The translations under genes and the position numbers were made by a program. From positions 1-35,607 of the forward strand of contig CAWIEK010000062.1 of assembly GCA_963835065.1 (NCBI GenBank): a DNA stretch of 35,607 nucleotides. The letters are read 5' to 3'. A model generated the notes under the pieces. It was not told where the DNA came from. It ran no database searches and was given only the letters and a program-made list of their open reading frames with translations. This document shows positions 24,804-33,927 of the stretch, piece after piece. Every line of letters begins with the position of its first letter. Within the stretch, counting starts at the first letter, position 1. The DNA is from an uncultured Chthonomonadaceae bacterium (lineage in GTDB: Bacteria; Armatimonadota; Chthonomonadetes; Chthonomonadales; Chthonomonadaceae).

Positions 24804-24880
24804 CTGCGGACAATCTCCTGTCAGGTACAATACAGCAATTGAAATTCGCTGTTCCCACCCTACTACGAAAGAAAACACGC

Positions 24881-26263
24881 ATGATTACGCGCATCGAAAT
24901 TGACGGCTTCAAAACCTTTCAGGACTTTGCTGTTGACCTCGCTCCCTTCCAAGTCATCATCGGCGCAAACGGCTGCGGCAAAAGCAACTTCTTCGATGCT
25001 TTACATTTGCTCTCGCAGATTATTAATTCAGGAGTATACGTAGCTTTACAATCTTTACGCGGAAGATTACGTGAGCTTTTCACTCAACTTCCTGATGGGA
25101 AGTCGGCAGATAAAATTCGTTTTGGCGTTGAGATGTTAGTCACGTCCACTGTTCGAGATGAATGGGGGCAAAGTGTTGAATTGGCAAACCCTCGCCTCCG
25201 CTACGAGCTGGAAATTCGTTACCGTCCTGATTTATCTGGCGTAGAGTGGCTCTCGATTGAACATGAATCGCTCACCTCTATAATGTGGCGTCAAGACAGG
25301 TGGCTGTCTGGATACGAATTGTTCGCTGCCGGTATCCGTTCTACCATTGACGAAATAAAATACATTGTTACTGAATTTACTGGCAGTGAACCGGCAGTAC
25401 GGCTGTTGCAGGATAATACCGGTATTATGCCTCGCGTGAAAACGTTTTCTCTACGATCCCTGGAGAAAACGATGCTTAGCGCTGCACAAGATTGCGAAAC
25501 TCCCCATGCGCTTGCCGTTCGTCAAGAAATCCAAAGCTGGCAGTTCGCAAACATTGAAACTTATGTAATGTCAATGTCGCCCGACTTGCAATTTTCTGGC
25601 ACACCAACGGAAATGATTACCGGGAACCAAATCCCATATATCCTTGCTAAAATGCAGGCAGAAGTGCCCGAGCAAATGGCTTGGGTTTCAAGGGACATGG
25701 CAAGTTTGATTCCGAACCTTCGTTTTATAGAGGTCGCCACTGAGCCGGATAATCGTATTGTGGTTTACGCGAATATGCAAGATGGACGCCGTTTTTCAAT
25801 ACGAGTTCTCTCTGATGGCACTCTGCGTTTATTAGCGCTCGCCACCTTACGTAACGATCCAAAACGACAAGGCGAACATAGCGTTATCTGCTTTGAAGAC
25901 CCGGAGGAAGATGTACATCCCGGCGTACTCAAAAGGTTAGTAGGCTTGATGCGCGATATGACTGCAAATTTGTTCGACGATCAGCAGTTAAGATCGCCGT
26001 TGCGCCAATTGCTGGTAACGACGCACTCGCCGGAATTCGTCAGCCATTTAGATGTTCGCGCAGGAGAGTTGCTGTACGCGGAGATGGTGACGCGGATGCA
26101 GCCGGGGCAACTGCCAATGCAGGTGACGCGCATGACGCCTGTTGGCAGAGAGATCGAAGGGGATAAAGCCGCCAAATCGTATACGCTCAACCAAGTGTTC
26201 AAATACTTGAACAACGCGGATTATCAAGCCATTCGCAACGATTTGCAAAAGGCAGGCGGCTGA
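24881..26263 (+). CDS. ABC-type/AAA_21 ATPase (copy 1)
   Basis: Walker A GANGCGKS, signature LSDGT, Walker B ICFEDPE, H-loop TTHSP; the stop overlaps the next start (TGATG). Confidence 0.9.
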   Translation: MITRIEIDGFKTFQDFAVDLAPFQVIIGANGCGKSNFFDALHLLSQIINSGVYVALQSLRGRLRELFTQLPDGKSADKIRFGVEMLVTSTVRDEWGQSVELANPRLRYELEIRYRPDLSGVEWLSIEHESLTSIMWRQDRWLSGYELFAAGIRSTIDEIKYIVTEFTGSEPAVRLLQDNTGIMPRVKTFSLRSLEKTMLSAAQDCETPHALAVRQEIQSWQFANIETYVMSMSPDLQFSGTPTEMITGNQIPYILAKMQAEVPEQMAWVSRDMASLIPNLRFIEVATEPDNRIVVYANMQDGRRFSIRVLSDGTLRLLALATLRNDPKRQGEHSVICFEDPEEDVHPGVLKRLVGLMRDMTANLFDDQQLRSPLRQLLVTTHSPEFVSHLDVRAGELLYAEMVTRMQPGQLPMQVTRMTPVGREIEGDKAAKSYTLNQVFKYLNNADYQAIRNDLQKAGG

Positions 26264-27054: not shown

Positions 27055-28450
27055 ATGATTACGCGCATCGAAATTGACGGCTTCAAAACCTTTCAGGATT
27101 TTGCTGTAGACCTTGCTCCCTTTCAGGTCATCATTGGCGCAAACGGCTGCGGCAAAAGCAACTTTTTCGACGCGCTCGACTTGCTGTCCGGTTGCACTCC
27201 GAAATTCGGACGGCGCATTTCAAAGAGATCGCGGAAACATCGACGAACTATTCACCATTCTGCCCGGAATAAATCTGTAGATGAAATGCGGTTTAGCTGT
27301 TGAGATGCTAATGGAGGGTATGAACAAGATGGATTAGAAGGGCTGAAACGAAAAAACTTAACACGCATGCGGTACGTTAAATTCAGTTGCAAAAACGGAC
27401 CAGCCCGACGGGTTTGAACAACTAGATGTCTATGAAGAACATCTTGACGCTATTTCTACTGACAAAGATCGCTTGGGCGAATAGGCGGTTCCAGATGATG
27501 CCAAGCCTCTTTAGAAAGTACAAGCCAGACATGGATTTTCACAAACCGCACGAGTTAAGATGGCAGCACATACAATGGTGGAACTGATGTCGTAAGTTAT
27601 AAATCTGACTGATTAATTGATGTTTTACTCAAATGACTATTGGCCGCAGTTTGGGATTCGCCAACCGTCCCATGATTAGTATCTACTTAGATGCACACTC
27701 GCCGCATTTACTAGCGCTCAGAAGGAGTTAAGCAGCATTGCGCCTGTTGCGGCTGGACACGGCTAAGTTACGGCTGCCAAGTGATTATTTTGCCGAAAAG
27801 ACTGTAGCAGCAACAGGTGAAAACCTTCCGGCAACATTAGCGCGGATGCAGGATAAACATCTGCTCAAAGATGTTTCGCGGGACGTCCTTAACATCGTGC
27901 CCGGTTTTGCAAGCATCGAAGTGGACCTGGACGAAGGGCGGAAGCAAATTTACGAATTTACGCCAACATGCGAGATGAGCGCCGCTTTTCTATTGATGCG
28001 CTGTCGGAGGGAACGATGCGCATACTGGCCCTTGCCACACTGCGCAACGATCCGCAATTGCAAGGAACGTTGTGCGTTGAAGACCCGGAAATGGGCGTTC
28101 ATCCCGCCGCGTTGAAGCGCATTGTAAAATTGTTAGCGCGGCATGGCTACCGAGTTAACAGTCCCGAAGATTTGCAATTGCCTCTGCGTCAGGTGCTTGT
28201 AACCACACACTCGCCGGAATTAGTTAGCCACCTGGACGTAGCGGCGGGCGAACTGCTGTTTGCGACAATGGCTACGCGGGTTGGTCGTGAACAAGCGCCA
28301 ATGCAGGTGACGCGCATGTCGCCGGTTCGCGTAGATGAGGGAAAAAACACGCCGGAAGGAGCCTACGCGCTTACCAATGTAATCGCTTACCTGAATGGCA
28401 GCGGCGTGGAAGCCGCCAATAAAAAGCTGCGGGCGGCGCACCTGAAATGA
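27055..28450 (+). pseudogene. ABC-type/AAA_21 ATPase (copy 2), multiply frameshifted
   Basis: First ~41 aa identical to copy 1; fragments RGNIDELFTILP, GENLPATLARMQ, LSEGT, LCVEDPE and TTHSPE are spread over different frames. Confidence 0.8.
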
Positions 28451-29127
28451 ACGTTCTGACTATCGCTGTGTATCTGGAAGGCAGTTCCGATAAGGCTCTG
28501 CCCATTCTGGTACAGCGCGTCGCACAGCAGATGGTGAATGAGCATGGGTGGGCGGAACGGGGCTGGGGTGATGTGGATGTGCTGTCGCCCCTGATTCTCA
28601 ATGAGTTCGTCACAAATGAACCCCCGAACTTGCCCGCCCGGCTGCTGGCAGCGGCTCGCTTTGCGCATGGCTACCGTATCCTTGTGATTCATCGAGACGC
28701 GGACGCCGCCACAACCGACAAGGCCAAAAGGAAAAATGAACTGGCGCTGAAACGTGTCAAACAGGCGTCGGCGAACGGCATTGCGGTTTGCAGCGCCATT
28801 GTACATCTTGTTCCCATTCGTGAAATGGAGGCATGGCTGCTTGCGGACCCGGACGCTTTGCGCAAAGTGTTCGATCTTGACGCGGATACGGATTTGTCCG
28901 ATGTGCCAAAACATGCCCGCGAAGTGGAAGCTATTAGAGATGCCAAACAGCGTCTCAATCAAGTTATGACACGGATTGCTCCCAATGCCAATCTGGAGGA
29001 TATTTACGAGACGCTTGCGGAAGCCATCAGCCTTGAAAGGCTAAGGCAACTGAGCGCCTTTCAAGAATTTGAACGGGACTTGAAACGAGTTTTGCGCGTA
29101 CTGGAAATCATTGAACCCGGAACATAG
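28447..29127 (+). CDS. DUF4276-type TOPRIM-like protein (copy 2, intact)
   Basis: EGSSD, HRDAD and PIREMEAWLLAD; ATGA overlap with ATPase copy 2. Confidence 0.85.
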   Translation: MNVLTIAVYLEGSSDKALPILVQRVAQQMVNEHGWAERGWGDVDVLSPLILNEFVTNEPPNLPARLLAAARFAHGYRILVIHRDADAATTDKAKRKNELALKRVKQASANGIAVCSAIVHLVPIREMEAWLLADPDALRKVFDLDADTDLSDVPKHAREVEAIRDAKQRLNQVMTRIAPNANLEDIYETLAEAISLERLRQLSAFQEFERDLKRVLRVLEIIEPGT

Positions 29128-29218: not shown

Positions 29219-31129
29219 TTAAGCGGGGTGGGCGTAGAAGGCGGACAGCAGCAGGAATTTTGCCGTGTAGTCAATGGCCGCTTCGTTGGTCACATAATCC
29301 TGAACGGTGTCGTGGTAGACGGCAACCTCGTCCGGCAGATCGGCGGGCGGGATGGGACCGGGCAGCATCTGCATATCATCGAACTTGTCCATGACAATGT
29401 GCTGCGCGCTGAAAATCTCCTGCGTTGCCGGCCCGCCGACCAATGCGCCCGTCAATTCCAATTTCTTCAAGTTGGCGATGGGATGATGCGGGAACAGGGG
29501 ATAGCGGGTACCCGCCCCGATCAGATACGACATGCTGAAGGGATTGCAGCCTAAGATGAAATCGCGCTGCTGCCGCGCCACATCGAGATACACTTCCCGG
29601 CTGCTGTCGTCCAAAATCTGCGCGTACAGCAGGCAGTTGAGCGCCGCGCCCGCCGCCGCTTCCGCCGTGCCCCAGATGTAGGGCGTCGCCAGGCCGTAAG
29701 GATTGGCGGAGCGCAGGCGGGCATAATCGGCGTCTGCGCGCAGATACTGCCGCAGCCGCAGTTTATCCTCGCCGTTGACATAGGGAAGCAGCGAGTAATG
29801 GGCTAGCGCATGGGTGTTGTAAATGCTGGTCGCCTCATACGCCGCGCCTGCCCGGTGCGCGAAGTCAATGGCCTGCCGCAGATATTCGGGCTTGCGCGTG
29901 GCGCGGTGCAATTCGATTGCGCCCCACGCCATGTCGTCTTCCCACGTCTTTTCAGGATAAAAGTCGGCGGGAATGGTACTCAGCGCGACAGGGTTGTCAA
30001 GCCCAAGCTGATACACCGTCTGTGCGGCCTCGTAGCAGCGGTGCGCGAATTGCTGGTCGTGCCGGGCGTACAATCGCGATGCAATCGCAAAGGCCGCCGC
30101 CGTTCGTCCCGCCAAATTCGCGCCGATGCCGTAATACGCGAGGCGCGGCTTCCAATCCGCCGTGTTGACGACACTATCCTGCTCCGGCAAGCGCCATACG
30201 TCGTGGTCTGACTCGTCGCCGATCTGGAAATAAAACTCGTCGGGCGCGGGGTGCATCTTCAGCAGCCATTCCAAACCCACGCGGGCGTTCGCCAGAAGGG
30301 GTGGCAGGGGCGCGAACGTGGAATGGGAATGTGTCAATTGGGGAAAATGGTCACACGTAAACAGCATCAGCGCGGTGACGTAACTGGCGGTTTCCACAAA
30401 CTTCATGTAATCGCCAGCATCGTGCCAGCCGCCGCTGCCGTCCAAAATCTGCCCGTCGCGCGGCCCGCCCACAATTACGCCATCATCGGCATGGCAGTTG
30501 TGGGGCGCATTGTCACCCGTGCCGCAGCGCTGGATGGTGAAATAATCCAGCGTCAGGCCGATGAGATCACGGTACAAATTCGGCCCAATGGAAAAAGGCG
30601 CGGAATGGACGCCGTTGGACAGGCGCAGGCGATAGCGTCCGGGGCGGGTAAAATCCTCGAACTCGGCGATGTAGTGGTGCGGGAAGCGGCCATACTGCGC
30701 GCCCGAAGGAGCGGTATAACGCCGCAGTTCGCCCTGATAGCGCACTTTGGGCATCGTATCGTCGTCAAGGATGCTGAAACTGTTGCCGGGAATAGGGCCG
30801 TGCGCGGGAATAACCGCCCGCTTGCTTTCATTGGGCAGATACCCGACCTGATTGAGATGGATATGCGCTTCGACAACGGGCATGGGTGTGGCAACGCCTT
30901 GCTTGTTTTTGCCGCGCGCATTGGCGGTGGAAAGCCGTTTGGCGCGCGCAGAAGCGAAACGCGGCTTGCTGTCGCCCGCGAACGCCGCCTTGCTCAACGC
31001 CGATTGCGCGGCAATGCCTGCGCTCGACAGCGCCGCGCGCCGCAGAAACTCGCGCCGCGAAACATTGCTTTTAAGCAGCGGAGTTGGGCTGGTATTAAAA
31101 GTTGGGTTATTAAAATCGGTGGCCTGCAT
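29219..31129 (-). CDS. Glycoside hydrolase family 9 with an N-terminal Ig-like domain and Tat signal
   Basis: SRREFL twin-arginine motif; HLNQVGYLP Ig-like start; GGWHDAGD, PHH and TNEAAIDY catalytic motifs. Confidence 0.92.
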   Translation of the reverse strand: MQATDFNNPTFNTSPTPLLKSNVSRREFLRRAALSSAGIAAQSALSKAAFAGDSKPRFASARAKRLSTANARGKNKQGVATPMPVVEAHIHLNQVGYLPNESKRAVIPAHGPIPGNSFSILDDDTMPKVRYQGELRRYTAPSGAQYGRFPHHYIAEFEDFTRPGRYRLRLSNGVHSAPFSIGPNLYRDLIGLTLDYFTIQRCGTGDNAPHNCHADDGVIVGGPRDGQILDGSGGWHDAGDYMKFVETASYVTALMLFTCDHFPQLTHSHSTFAPLPPLLANARVGLEWLLKMHPAPDEFYFQIGDESDHDVWRLPEQDSVVNTADWKPRLAYYGIGANLAGRTAAAFAIASRLYARHDQQFAHRCYEAAQTVYQLGLDNPVALSTIPADFYPEKTWEDDMAWGAIELHRATRKPEYLRQAIDFAHRAGAAYEATSIYNTHALAHYSLLPYVNGEDKLRLRQYLRADADYARLRSANPYGLATPYIWGTAEAAAGAALNCLLYAQILDDSSREVYLDVARQQRDFILGCNPFSMSYLIGAGTRYPLFPHHPIANLKKLELTGALVGGPATQEIFSAQHIVMDKFDDMQMLPGPIPPADLPDEVAVYHDTVQDYVTNEAAIDYTAKFLLLSAFYAHPA

Positions 31130-31292: not shown

Positions 31293-31464
31293 GCTTTTGT
31301 TTTAGCCCTGTGCCGACATTCTGTGAATGTCCGATTTATTTTCATGCGAAACTCTTCCCAACATGCCCGCGACGTGGTACAATAACCATAGACACGAATC
31401 ACTCTCAACGTGGTTGCGCTGGTTTCCAGCCCGTGTTTCAATTGAATAGCGCGTTTTGAATGAC

Positions 31465-31546
31465 CGCTAGGGGTGCTGCAAAGCTGAGAAGGCAATTTCG
31501 CCTAACCCTGACTACCTGATTCGGGTAATACCGACGGAGGGAAGCG
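31465..31546 (+). ncRNA. TPP (THI-box) riboswitch aptamer
   Basis: cgctaGGGGTGCtgcaaaGCTGAGAaggcaatttcgcctaACCCtgactACCTGATtcggGTAATAccgaCGgAGGgAagcg: all hallmark segments are present; P1 cgct/agcg, P4 cct/agg, P5 tcgg/ccga. Confidence 0.95.
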
Positions 31547-31570
31547 ACCAAACGCCGCCACTTGAAAAAA

Positions 31571-31636
31571 TCCTTCAAACCTGGCTGCCGTCGCTTTCGC
31601 CGCTGCGCAAGCGACGGCATTTTGCGTTTGGAAGGA
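31571..31636 (+). terminator. Riboswitch expression platform: terminator hairpin plus SD-sequestering stem
   Basis: 11-bp stem tgccgtcgctt (31586-96) / aagcgacggca (31609-19) followed by TTTTGCGTTT; tccttcaaac (31571-80) can pair with gtttggaagga (31626-36). Confidence 0.8.
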
Positions 31637-31643
31637 GAAGAGG

Positions 31644-32534
31644 ATGCGTTACACAGGAAGTAGGGAACAGGGAACAGGAAACAGGGAACAGGAGGAGACG
31701 GGTTCCCCTCAACTCTCAACCGGGCGTCCGCTTGCGGACTACAACCGGGCGTTTACCTTGATTGAGTTGCTCGTCGTGATCGCTATTATCGCGATTTTGG
31801 CGGCGATTTTGTTTCCGGTTTTTGCGCAGGCGCGGGAGTCGGCTCGGCAGGCGGTCTGCACGTCCAATGTGCGGCAAATCGGATTGGCGGTGCAGATGTA
31901 CACGCAGGACAACGACGAAACCCTGCCTATCTTCTTCGCCTACAACACGCAGGACCCGGCGACGGGGCAGTCGGCGAAAGCGGGCCAACCCCTGCACAAA
32001 GGCGTGGAACTGGAAGTCCTGCCGTATGCCAAAAACAAGGACATTTTCAAGTGTCCCGACGATTTGGGCAGCGCGTTCCTATCCGACCCGACGTATGGCT
32101 GCCCCGGCCTGCGTTCCTATCAAGCGTGCTACGGATCGAGCTACCGGTTCACCAAGCGGGCGTTCAGCATCATCGGGCAGGATCAGGCGGGGCCGACCAA
32201 TGGCTCCAGCCAGAACAACGATACGACGCAATTTCCCACCAGTTTCGTTTCCACGCTTGCCGGCATGACCGCGCCGTCCGACACCCGCATCATGCGCGAC
32301 GAGATGATGCCCTGGTTCGGCGCAACAGACAAAGGCGGCGCGAAATACGGCTACTATCCCGACTACTTTGCGCAATGGCACAGCCGGGGCGGCGGCACGG
32401 TCTTCGCGGACGGCCACGCCAAATTCACTGTCAGCGCCCTCCAGTTCGATCAGCAGGTCGTCTGCCCCGCCGGCGGACGCAGCGGCGACACCGACCCGGC
32501 CACCAACACCGCCTACTACTGGGAGTGCGATTAG
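31644..32534 (+). CDS. Prepilin-type N-terminal cleavage/methylation protein with DUF1559 and H-X9-DG motif (TPP-regulated)
   Basis: [48 protein letters not shown]-terminal [21 protein letters not shown]. Confidence 0.93.
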
Positions 32535-32535
32535 G

Positions 32536-32723
32536 AAAATGAACCACCCGCTTCGCTAGAGACACAGAGGCACAGAGGAAAAGCCAATGCGAGAAAAACA
32601 ACGAGAACAAGGAGAGAAAATGGAACCGCAAAGAGGCAAAAGAAGCAAAGTGGTTTATTCTCTTCTTTTCTTTTTTTCTTCCTCTGTGTCTCTGTGTCTC
32701 TAGCGAAGCGGGTGGTTCATTTT
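32536..32723. repeat. 188-bp element with 45-bp inverted repeats (one mismatch) built on CACAGAG nonamer units
   Basis: aaaatgaaccacccgcttcgctagagacacagaggcacagaggaa (32536-32580) versus 32679-32723; fills the whole gap between convergent stop codons. Confidence 0.9.
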
Positions 32724-33927
32724 ATGCGAGGAATTCGCTTAATACGGTGTTGGCGAGGAGCAGGCCGCGATGCGTGAGGCGGAGGGTGTCCGCTTCGAGG
32801 ATGAGCAGGCCGCGCCGGGTTAAGTTTTCGAGTTGGGGCGCATAATGGGCGAGCGGGTCAATGTGAAAGCGATGGCGCAGGCGGGACAGGGGCAGGCCGT
32901 CGCGCAGGCGCAGGCCGAGCATGATGGTTTCGCCCAGTGTTTCTTCCATTGTCAGCTGCTCCGACTCGACGGTCAGATCCGCCTGCGCCTGCGCCTTTTG
33001 CACGTAGCGGGCGGGCAGGCGCTCGCGCTTCCAGCGTCGCCCCCCGATATAGGAAACCGCGCCCGGTCCGATGCCCAGATACTCCTCGTTGCGCCAGTAG
33101 ACCAGATTGTGGCGGCAGCGAAAGCCGGGGAGAGCGAAGTTGCTGACTTCGTAATGGTCGTACCCGGAAGCGGTCAGCAGTTGGATGCTGCGCTCGTACA
33201 TTTCCAGTTCGGCGTCCTCGTCGGGCAAGTCCAGTTTGCCGCCTGCGTGGAGCCGCTCAAAGCGCGTCCCGGCTTCCAGCGTCAGGGCGTACAGGGATAG
33301 ATGCGTTGTGCCAAGCGCCAGCGCGCGCTGCAGCGAGGCTTCCCAAAGCGACGTGGTTTGCTTCGGCAGGGCAAACATCAGGTCGAGGCTGAGATTGTCG
33401 AAACCGGCCTGCCGCGCCAGCCGCAGCGCGTTCTCGGCGTCCTGAGCGGTATGGAACCGATCCAGCGCGGTCAGCAGCGTATCATCGAAGGATTGAACGC
33501 CGATGCTCAAGCGGTTGAACCCTGCCCTCCGCATCTGCGCGAACCGGGCCGCGTCGGAAGAGCCGGGGTTCGCTTCGCTGGAAATTTCGGCGTCCGGCGC
33601 AACCGGGAAATAATCGCGTATCGCGCCCACAATGCGCTCCAGTTGCTCACCCTGTAAGAATGTCGGCGTTCCCCCGCCGAAAAAGATCGTTTGTACCGGG
33701 CGCTCGCCCAAAACCCCGTTGCCTTGCTCTTCTTCCCCTGCTGCGCGTTGCAATGTGGCTTGTTCCCGGCTTGCCTGCGCAATGTCCCGGCAAATCGCTT
33801 CCACTGTGGCGGCAACAATCGCGCTTTGCGCTTTTTCCACATACGTGTTGAAGTCACAATAGGCGCAATGGCGCGTACAAAACGGAATGTGTACGTAAAT
33901 GGCAAGCGGCAAAGCGGTTTCTGTCAT
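32722..33927 (-). CDS. hemW: Radical SAM heme chaperone HemW
   Basis: YVHIPFC-x3-C-x2-CDFN, GGGTPT and the HemW-type HNLVYW motif; AAGGAG SD. Confidence 0.93.
   Translation of the reverse strand: MTETALPLAIYVHIPFCTRHCAYCDFNTYVEKAQSAIVAATVEAICRDIAQASREQATLQRAAGEEEQGNGVLGERPVQTIFFGGGTPTFLQGEQLERIVGAIRDYFPVAPDAEISSEANPGSSDAARFAQMRRAGFNRLSIGVQSFDDTLLTALDRFHTAQDAENALRLARQAGFDNLSLDLMFALPKQTTSLWEASLQRALALGTTHLSLYALTLEAGTRFERLHAGGKLDLPDEDAELEMYERSIQLLTASGYDHYEVSNFALPGFRCRHNLVYWRNEEYLGIGPGAVSYIGGRRWKRERLPARYVQKAQAQADLTVESEQLTMEETLGETIMLGLRLRDGLPLSRLRHRFHIDPLAHYAPQLENLTRRGLLILEADTLRLTHRGLLLANTVLSEFLA

Follow-up and report, generated by a model that had tools for sequence, protein, structure and literature searches.

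What purpose could a riboswitch for thiamine pyrophosphate (TPP) serve in front of a gene for a pilin-like protein? This question is raised by a stretch of 35,607 nucleotides (nt), here called the window, from an uncultured Chthonomonadaceae bacterium of the phylum Armatimonadota (GenBank assembly GCA_963835065.1, contig CAWIEK010000062.1, positions 1 to 35,607, forward strand), in which a TPP aptamer stands before a prepilin-type gene of the DUF1559/H-X9-DG family. Regulation by TPP, conserved kinase and symporter partners, and a link with the loss of thiC make thiamine acquisition the best reading of the locus, and judged from sequence a role of the pilin-like protein in that process is likely. 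More specifically, the locus would on balance be a thiamine-repressed single-gene unit by which a thiamine-auxotrophic Armatimonadota bacterium captures or takes up the vitamin through the pilin-like protein. DUF1559/H-X9-DG proteins are among the largest paralog families of Armatimonadota, Planctomycetota and Verrucomicrobiota.

The riboswitch and its target

Two features make up the pair.

31459..31559, plus strand: TPP aptamer (THI element), matched by RF00059; the P1 core CGCU at 31466-31469 pairs with AGCG at 31543-31546.
31644..32534, plus strand: prepilin-type DUF1559/H-X9-DG gene of 296 amino acids, an open reading frame (ORF) matched by PF07963, PF07596 and TIGR02532.

In a cmscan of the whole window, RF00059 is the sole Rfam match above its gathering score (65.2 bits against 54.3, E 8.6e-11) and is full length, covering model positions 1-105 of 105. 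The canonical aptamer that a first-pass annotation had read from the letters is thus borne out, its start at 31465 lying 6 nt inside the match. The same annotation correctly placed the aptamer before a prepilin-type gene, while its spacing of about 100 bp gives way to the 84 nt found between the aptamer end and the ATG at 31644. Across the source assembly (8.0 Mb, 71 contigs, 91.9% complete), Infernal finds a single TPP element and a regular expression for the core motif likewise gives one.

The pilin-like gene is also, as had been proposed, the only gene that the switch can control, because the upstream neighbor (29219-31129, a GH9 cellulase) is divergent and the downstream neighbor (32722-33927, hemW-like with Radical_SAM and HemN_C domains) is convergent. 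In the window the gene is solitary, and the two other genomes of the genus show the same.

Conservation of the pair

Conservation was examined in 61 genomes of the order, including the source, in which all 65 TPP matches were inspected, and in an even sample of 151 Armatimonadota genomes searched with a profile of the clade (alignment A1). A TPP match is present in 56 of the 61 order genomes, and in 53 of the 61 it lies directly before an ortholog of the window gene, one per genome. Identity of these orthologs to the window protein ranges from 45.7 to 91.2% across the order loci and from 59 to 85% in A1. Because it recurs in 53 of 61 related genomes, the pairing is not due to chance. The other 12 matches in the order behave as TPP elements usually do: 11 head thiC, thiE-thiS-thiG-thiO or thiM-thiE/thiD operons, and one is too short to read. 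One match of the set (L017) is cut off by a contig end, and three genomes (G025, G034 and G052) have a TPP-thiC unit only.

The phylum sample gives the same picture. TPP matches occur in 104 of the 151 genomes, and 54 genomes hold a profile match at E <= 1e-50. By coordinates, 52 of these 54 have a TPP hit on the same strand within about 300 nt upstream, and these are all the matches at E <= 1e-79; the two that lack an adjacent element are the weakest (1e-53 and 9e-51), at the level of paralogs. Named records with the pair come from Chthonomonadales, Capsulimonas, Armatimonadales and other Armatimonadota. In the 13 loci L084-L096, the element is directly upstream in 12 and about 1.5 kb upstream in L089. 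None of seven paralog or other-phylum loci carries a TPP element.

The first-pass annotation had named an orphan aptamer, left behind by a rearrangement, as one of the findings that would undo its proposal. That possibility is ruled out by the conservation of the pairing, since the riboswitch is kept in 53 of 61 order genomes and in all 52 phylum genomes with matches at E <= 1e-79.

Several loci depart from the simple arrangement. A tandem pair of TPP-linked pilin-like genes stands behind one riboswitch in G084:C3:37310-38766 (L084) and in G097:C264:3557-5074. An in-frame stop interrupts one of the two G084 copies and also the only copy of G127. The contig at locus L092, with the riboswitch-pilin-thiN-SSF arrangement that typifies Armatimonadota, has been assigned to a metagenome-assembled genome of Janthinobacterium lividum, possibly by a binning error.

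Operon partners and thiamine auxotrophy

If the pair serves thiamine acquisition, what accompanies it? A gene for thiamine pyrophosphokinase (TPK; PF04263, thiN) lies directly downstream of the pilin-like gene in 31 of the 53 order loci. In 14 of the loci for which about 3 kb of downstream sequence was retrieved, an SSF symporter (PF00474) comes after the kinase, and in one order locus the symporter follows the pilin-like gene directly. The order pilin-thiN-SSF is found likewise in Capsulimonas and Armatimonadales records. All order genomes with the SSF symporter (32/32) hold the TPP-pilin pair.

In the source genome, family searches find no thiC, and tblastn with the proteins of relatives' riboswitch operons finds no ThiC, ThiE, ThiS, ThiG, ThiM or ThiD. 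TPK is encoded on another contig, adjoining ligA and with no riboswitch. As far as the incomplete assembly shows, the organism is likely able to use only intact thiamine. The first-pass annotation had offered thiamine or a precursor, hydroxymethylpyrimidine (HMP) or thiazole, as the ligand. Of these, thiamine is the likely one, because TPK is present; HMP and thiazole are set aside because no ThiD, ThiM or ThiE that could use them was found. The annotation had further asked for the known uptake systems, of which ThiT is indeed not found in the source genome, ThiBPQ and ECF uptake systems not being part of the search.

Across genomes, the pilin-like gene and thiC tend to exclude one another. 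The counts are as follows.

Order, 61 genomes: pilin-like gene with thiC, 7; pilin-like gene, no thiC, 46; thiC, no pilin-like gene, 4; neither, 4.
Phylum, 151 genomes: pilin-like gene with thiC, 3; pilin-like gene, no thiC, 49; thiC, no pilin-like gene, 82; neither, 17.

These two-by-two counts overstate the association, since kinship among the genomes makes the samples non-independent. Among the 17 phylum genomes with neither gene, six belong to a family (f17) that has its own TPP-linked group of pilin-like proteins. In family f6, the lone genome without thiC (G127) is the lone holder of a riboswitch-linked ortholog, and two other genomes of the family have weak, paralog-level profile matches with no adjacent TPP element. 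In family f29, thiC occurs in just two genomes, and it is these that lack the pair.

A clade apart from its paralogs

The source genome contains 77 ORFs that match the clade profile, with 450 bits for the window protein and 146.5 bits for the next-best paralog. The first-pass annotation had suggested testing whether TPP-linked members form a clade. In a quick maximum-likelihood tree with many long branches and no outgroup, the 64 TPP-linked proteins, chosen by riboswitch adjacency, do fall on one side of a branch with a Shimodaira-Hasegawa-like approximate likelihood ratio (SH-aLRT) support of 98; on the other side are 62 source-genome paralogs and one from a relative. The window clade is single-copy, strongly conserved and riboswitch-linked. 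Seventeen residues are at least 95% conserved within it and rare in paralogs (F97, Y100, H118, E122, G142, Y159, F169, S188, R215, R218, M221, F225, Y237, W245, F261, F268 and D296), a set rich in aromatic and charged side chains. Family-wide residues lie in the N-terminal helix, at C72 and C137, and in the H-X9-DG-H block. The soluble domain (about residues 62-296) has six conserved Cys. The H-X9-DG motif is accordingly not specific to the clade: paralog rows share H246 in 86%, D256 in 95% and G257 in 89%.

A second recruitment of the same kind may have taken place elsewhere in the phylum. Among 20 TPP loci from families with no ortholog, 18 head thi4-like, thiC, thiE or thiG genes; the remaining two, both in family f17, head a shorter pilin-like H-X9-DG protein of 232 amino acids, and at one of them an apparent symporter N-terminus follows. 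A separate recruitment is suggested because a tree with both f17 proteins forces two label changes.

The DUF1559 family is also tied to a second vitamin. The only cobalamin riboswitch found in the source genome (RF00174, 53.4 bits) lies before a prepilin-type DUF1559/H-X9-DG paralog; an FMN riboswitch was not found there. The two vitamin switches, each the sole one of its class found in the source genome, therefore both control members of the family. The idea of exchangeable, ligand-specific subunits, put forward in the first-pass annotation, gains support from the cobalamin locus.

Further observations concern that locus (G000:C49:773319-774640; L191 520-1840). Downstream of the paralog come genes for an NMT1-like binding protein and a DUF169 protein, and then another DUF1559 gene. 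The leaders of the TPP-linked (31662-31700) and cobalamin-linked (L191 about 995-1030) pilin-like proteins share the peptide GTGNREQ, a motif encoded by heptamer repeats of the GGGAACA type. Peptide words of the GTGNREQ type also have chance-like matches in cyanobacterial records.

The leader and the ends of the locus

How might the switch act on its gene? The leader contains the following features in addition to the aptamer.

31355..31383, plus strand: candidate sigma-70-type promoter (TTCCCA, 17 nt, TG-TACAAT) from a consensus scan, with 9/12 matches plus the TG extension; a pattern match only.
31540..31598, plus strand: predicted anti-terminator; GGAAGCGAC at 31540-31548, overlapping the P1 3' strand, pairs with GUCGCUUUC at 31590-31598.
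31586..31629, plus strand: predicted intrinsic terminator as OFF-switch expression platform; a 34-nt hairpin at 31586-31619, then TTTTGCGTTT.
31630..31643, plus strand: ribosome-binding region GGAAGGAGAAGAGG, read from the sequence; strong, and abutting the ATG.

The candidate promoter lies about 75 nt 5' of the aptamer. The anti-terminator appears in the minimum free energy (MFE) fold of a transcript truncated at 31606, with a duplex energy of -14.8 kcal/mol, and its distal strand GUCGCUUUC is the 5' arm of the terminator. In the folded leader, the terminator and the anti-terminator derived from P1 are mutually exclusive. A custom hairpin scan gives the hairpin at 31586-31619 an energy of -23.9 kcal/mol, and it is present in the MFE fold of the full leader as well; a standard terminator consensus scan of the window does not list it. 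Counted by custom hairpin-plus-T-tail criteria, with shuffled and coding controls, a terminator-like hairpin followed by a T-rich tail is present in 53 of the 64 orthologous leaders; the controls give 8 of 64 for mononucleotide shuffles and 10 of 64 for coding stretches of matching length.

The design is thus predicted to be the usual transcriptional OFF switch. At high TPP, the bound aptamer would close P1 and leave the 5' arm of the hairpin free, so that the terminator would form and transcription would halt before the gene. At low TPP, that arm would be engaged by the 3' strand of P1 in an anti-terminator, allowing transcription of the gene. The aptamer is observed directly, while the switching remains a prediction because it is drawn from folding and from conservation of the hairpin. 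As a riboswitch, the element is ordinary.

The 3' side of the gene is occupied by one more feature.

32536..32723, no strand assigned: 188-bp palindromic repeat with 45-nt arms that are 98% complementary, filling the gap to the hemW-like gene.

This palindrome yields 225 blastn alignments genome-wide and is a dispersed repeat resembling miniature inverted-repeat transposable elements (MITE) or repetitive extragenic palindromes (REP). It marks the 3' boundary of the unit and may serve as a bidirectional terminator. Two long hairpins inside or just after the ligA-like gene near TPK (L110 8600-8736 and 10334-10437, G000:C5) may be further palindromic repeats; their matches were to plant or animal microRNA precursors, with scores far under the cut-offs. 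Elsewhere in the window, an ATPase gene at 24839-26263 (AAA_21/AAA_15, AbiEii-like in the wording of Pfam) and a DUF4276 gene at 28447-29127 form a possible defense-type pair.

The pilin-like protein

Between the ATG at 31644 and the pilin motif there is no further in-frame start codon (ATG, GTG or TTG). A leader of residues 1-36 is followed by the A|FTLIE motif with F37 and E41; the hydrophobic helix spans residues 37-60, a long helix extends to residue 89, and residues 90-296 make up a globular domain. It has the Phe at +1, the Glu at +5 and the hydrophobic helix of a prepilin-type (class III) signal peptide. PF07963 (N_methyl) scores 35.8 bits against a cut-off of 21.2 over residues 34-57, TIGR02532 scores 31.8 bits against 16.3, and PF07596 (DUF1559) scores 34.6 bits against 23.3, aligned over just profile positions 2-29 of 268. 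Among ESM Atlas clusters, those closest to residues 62-296 are DUF1559, with a score of 0.97. The family motif was read from the sequence.

32379..32414, plus strand: H-X9-DG motif, H246 ... D256 G257.

The H-X9-DG model of NCBIfam gives no match to the window protein at E <= 0.1, and every NCBIfam equivalog model scores it below cut-off; for GspG (TIGR01710), the score is 35.4 bits against 88.85 and covers the N-terminal 57 residues only. Pfam and NCBIfam profile searches find no match to the known thiamine transport families ThiT, PnuT, SSF of the ThiV type and TonB-dependent OMthi. The resemblance of the window protein to known components of thiamine transport lies in its riboswitch and its operon context alone.

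An AlphaFold2 model built from 60 orthologs has a mean predicted local distance difference test (pLDDT) value of 85.0 and a helix at residues 39-89. Foldseek returns nothing from the PDB at E <= 0.001. Exhaustive alignment against 48,161 chains places mostly pilins and pseudopilins at the top, all as weak matches: PilA4 of Thermus (6xxd) is the best, with Z 5.2 and a root-mean-square deviation of 3.6 over 122 residues, followed by 9iuf (Z 4.7), EpsG (4lw9, Z 4.5) and PulG (5wda, Z 3.6). A profile search of PDB sequences gives a match confined to the pilin N-terminal helix. The large globular part therefore fits no solved structure found. A chain with a periplasmic-binding-protein fold does not appear among the Foldseek or VIA-align matches, although absence from such a list is not exclusion. 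When an SSF symporter was modeled in complex with the soluble pilin-like domain encoded in the same operon (alignments A3 and A2), the score was 0.00, with no controls, which is uninformative either way.

Machinery and carriers in the envelope

If a pilin-like protein is to help bring thiamine into the cell, partners in both membranes would be of use. The source genome has four secretin matches, a prepilin peptidase just over its cut-off, two PilT-family ATPases over cut-off and several that are GspE/PilB-like. The TonB-receptor Plug domain is found neither in the source genome nor in two of its relatives (G001 and G041).

The only candidate inner-membrane vitamin carrier in the source genome is a PnuC-family protein. 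In the order, SSF and PnuC-family carriers are nearly exclusive of each other: one genome has both, 31 have SSF only, 22 have PnuC only and seven have neither, and a single genus contains both the SSF and the PnuC state. By this exclusivity, the PnuC-family protein of the source may be a thiamine carrier. As a separate observation, a gene for a DUF1559/H-X9-DG paralog of 345 amino acids immediately precedes the PnuC-family gene and is co-oriented with it; no riboswitch is present (G000:C2, L114 1432-3277, minus strand). Such a paralog-PnuC pair occurs in 5 of 22 PnuC loci examined, namely in the source genome and in G002, G013, G024 and G031; the PnuC locus of G017 has a different pilin N-terminus.

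A proposed mechanism and its alternatives

We propose that the product is a type-IV-pilin-like protein, probably cut by the prepilin peptidase, and that the processed protein would either stay in the inner membrane or become part of a short type IV filament or pseudopilus. As the thiamine-specific capture subunit of the envelope, it would bind thiamine with its globular domain. Secretin and PilT-type machinery might then help to carry the vitamin through the outer membrane and the periplasm to a carrier in the inner membrane, which would be the SSF symporter in many relatives and possibly the PnuC-family protein here, after which TPK would make TPP. In this scheme, the pilin-like protein would fill the place that the TonB-dependent OMthi has in Bacteroides. 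A broader extension is tentative and at present rather doubtful: a type IV filament/secretin machine would import scarce small nutrients across the outer membrane, as an alternative to TonB receptors, by means of interchangeable DUF1559/H-X9-DG proteins that each capture one kind of ligand, this clade taking thiamine and the paralog cobalamin.

Several observations weigh against the proposal, in addition to the kinship that inflates the counts given above. The canonical prepilin cleavage site has Gly at -1. In the window protein this residue is Ala36, as it is Ala in 47 of 62 clade members and in 42 of 74 pilin-like ORFs of the source genome. The structural model resembles pilins only weakly and matches no known ligand-binding fold. 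An ortholog of the SSF symporter was not found in the source genome, and its PnuC-family gene has no riboswitch and passes the NCBIfam equivalog model for PnuC, the nicotinamide riboside carrier. Seven of the 53 order genomes with the pair hold thiC, so that auxotrophy is no strict requirement. One genome (G005) has the pair together with four TonB-receptor Plug domain matches and, since it holds both, the pilin is not simply a substitute for missing TonB receptors. Finally, in a survey of 101 Planctomycetota genomes, none of 29 usable TPP loci stands before a pilin-like gene, most of them preceding thiC or thi4; in three further genomes the count is zero of four.

The main rival, though unlikely, is that the protein is a tethered periplasmic binder. 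Its pilin N-terminus would then be a mere inner-membrane anchor, comparable to the lipid anchor of Gram-positive binding proteins, and the globular domain would hand thiamine to SSF or PnuC, with no filament and no passage over the outer membrane. The gene adjoins and is co-oriented with the SSF symporter in many relatives, and the paralog directly upstream of the PnuC-family gene, with its pairing in 5 of 22 loci, is an arrangement of the same sort. The Pfam name SBP_bac_10 points the same way, a solute-binding family according to the accessible part of PMC2754498, as do the Sulfolobus sugar-binding proteins with class III signal peptides described in the accessible part of PMC3047682. Set against this, no binding-protein fold was matched, and loci that have no neighboring carrier gene, such as the one in the window, still keep the gene under riboswitch control. 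To our knowledge, carriers of the SSF and PnuC types are not known to use binding proteins, which also counts against a tethered binder.

A quite improbable alternative is an extracytoplasmic salvage enzyme, in which the globular domain would dephosphorylate thiamine monophosphate (TMP) or TPP, or convert a thiamine derivative, for a carrier that accepts thiamine only and for TPK. The His, Glu, Arg and Asp residues specific to the clade (H118, E122, R215, R218, D296) would suit such a role, as would an organism able to use intact thiamine only. Nevertheless, no enzyme family or fold was matched, and the scaffold is common to about 76 paralogs in the genome that are not TPP-linked, which fits variable binding better than one catalytic activity.

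The chance is slimmer still that the gene encodes a subunit for adhesion or secretion that is induced by starvation, either for contact with thiamine producers or as part of a type II pseudopilus that exports a scavenging factor, and that binds no vitamin. The pilin/pseudopilin-type fold and motifs would agree with it, and so would the secretins and several GspE/PilB-like ATPases. Yet no conserved cargo or adhesin gene accompanies the pair, the conserved partners being TPK and the symporter, and conservation of the globular domain (59-85% in A1, 45.7-91.2% in the order) is in our judgement unusual for adhesive pilins. Although the source PnuC-family and TPK genes lack a riboswitch, it is very unlikely that the gene has no thiamine-related function and that the switch is a relic or acts elsewhere, given a pairing kept over at least three orders, a conserved expression platform, a second pilin-like group recruited independently, and divergent and convergent flanking genes that offer no alternative target.

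Relation to known systems and significance

The closest parallel to the proposed thiamine-capture unit is in Bacteroides thetaiotaomicron, where the TPP-riboswitch thiamine uptake genes are OMthi (a TonB-dependent outer-membrane transporter), pnuT and tnr3, as given in the accessible part of PMC5613172. As in OMthi-pnuT-tnr3, the TPP riboswitch of the relatives' pilin-thiN-SSF units heads an envelope component, a carrier and TPK. The source genome likewise has TPK and a PnuC-family gene, at other loci. The differences are that the window unit has one gene only, and that the leading gene encodes a pilin-like DUF1559 member and not a TonB-dependent barrel, with no Plug domain found in the source genome. 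Relatives, moreover, have an SSF symporter as the carrier, and riboswitch control does not extend to the PnuC-family gene of the source.

The bindosome of Sulfolobus solfataricus, in which sugar-binding proteins with class III (pilin-type) signal peptides are assembled by Bas proteins (PMC3047682, accessible part), offers a second parallel. Both join a pilin-type N-terminus to a solute-capturing domain for uptake, with binding here only proposed. The bindosome, however, is archaeal and uses binding-protein domains of ATP-binding cassette (ABC) transporters, whereas here no such fold was matched and the partners are SSF or PnuC. With type IV pilins and type II pseudopilins (6xxd, 4lw9, 5wda), the window protein shares the N-terminal methylation motif and the long helix; it differs in being about twice their size, with a large, conserved, insert-rich globular domain, and in its control by a vitamin riboswitch.

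Within the DUF1559/SBP_bac_10 (PF07596) families, the window protein is an ordinary member in its above-cut-off PF07596 match, its family-wide residues and its H-X9-DG motif. Unlike other members, its clade is single-copy and riboswitch-linked, and the Planctomycetota sample showed no TPP-linked member. As of 2023, the function of the family was unknown according to the accessible part of PMC10632474, which counts 68 paralogs in Planctopirus limnophila, two of them essential. A literature search, which did not cover subscription journals and supplements, found nothing that links a riboswitch or thiamine to the DUF1559/H-X9-DG family. In a regulon of familiar type, the controlled component would be a novel sort of part.

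Because the riboswitch names a ligand, the clade gives the DUF1559 family a concrete and testable small molecule. If the pilin-like protein does capture thiamine, it would be a new type of component in vitamin B1 uptake and would explain the vitamin supply of these auxotrophs, some of which lack TonB-dependent receptors. It would also suggest that type IV filament machinery serves the import of small nutrients and would allow vitamin dependence to be predicted better from metagenomes of soil and biocrust. If, in addition, the subunits prove to be interchangeable, the result would be a first ligand and a general role for a family whose members number dozens per genome across several phyla.

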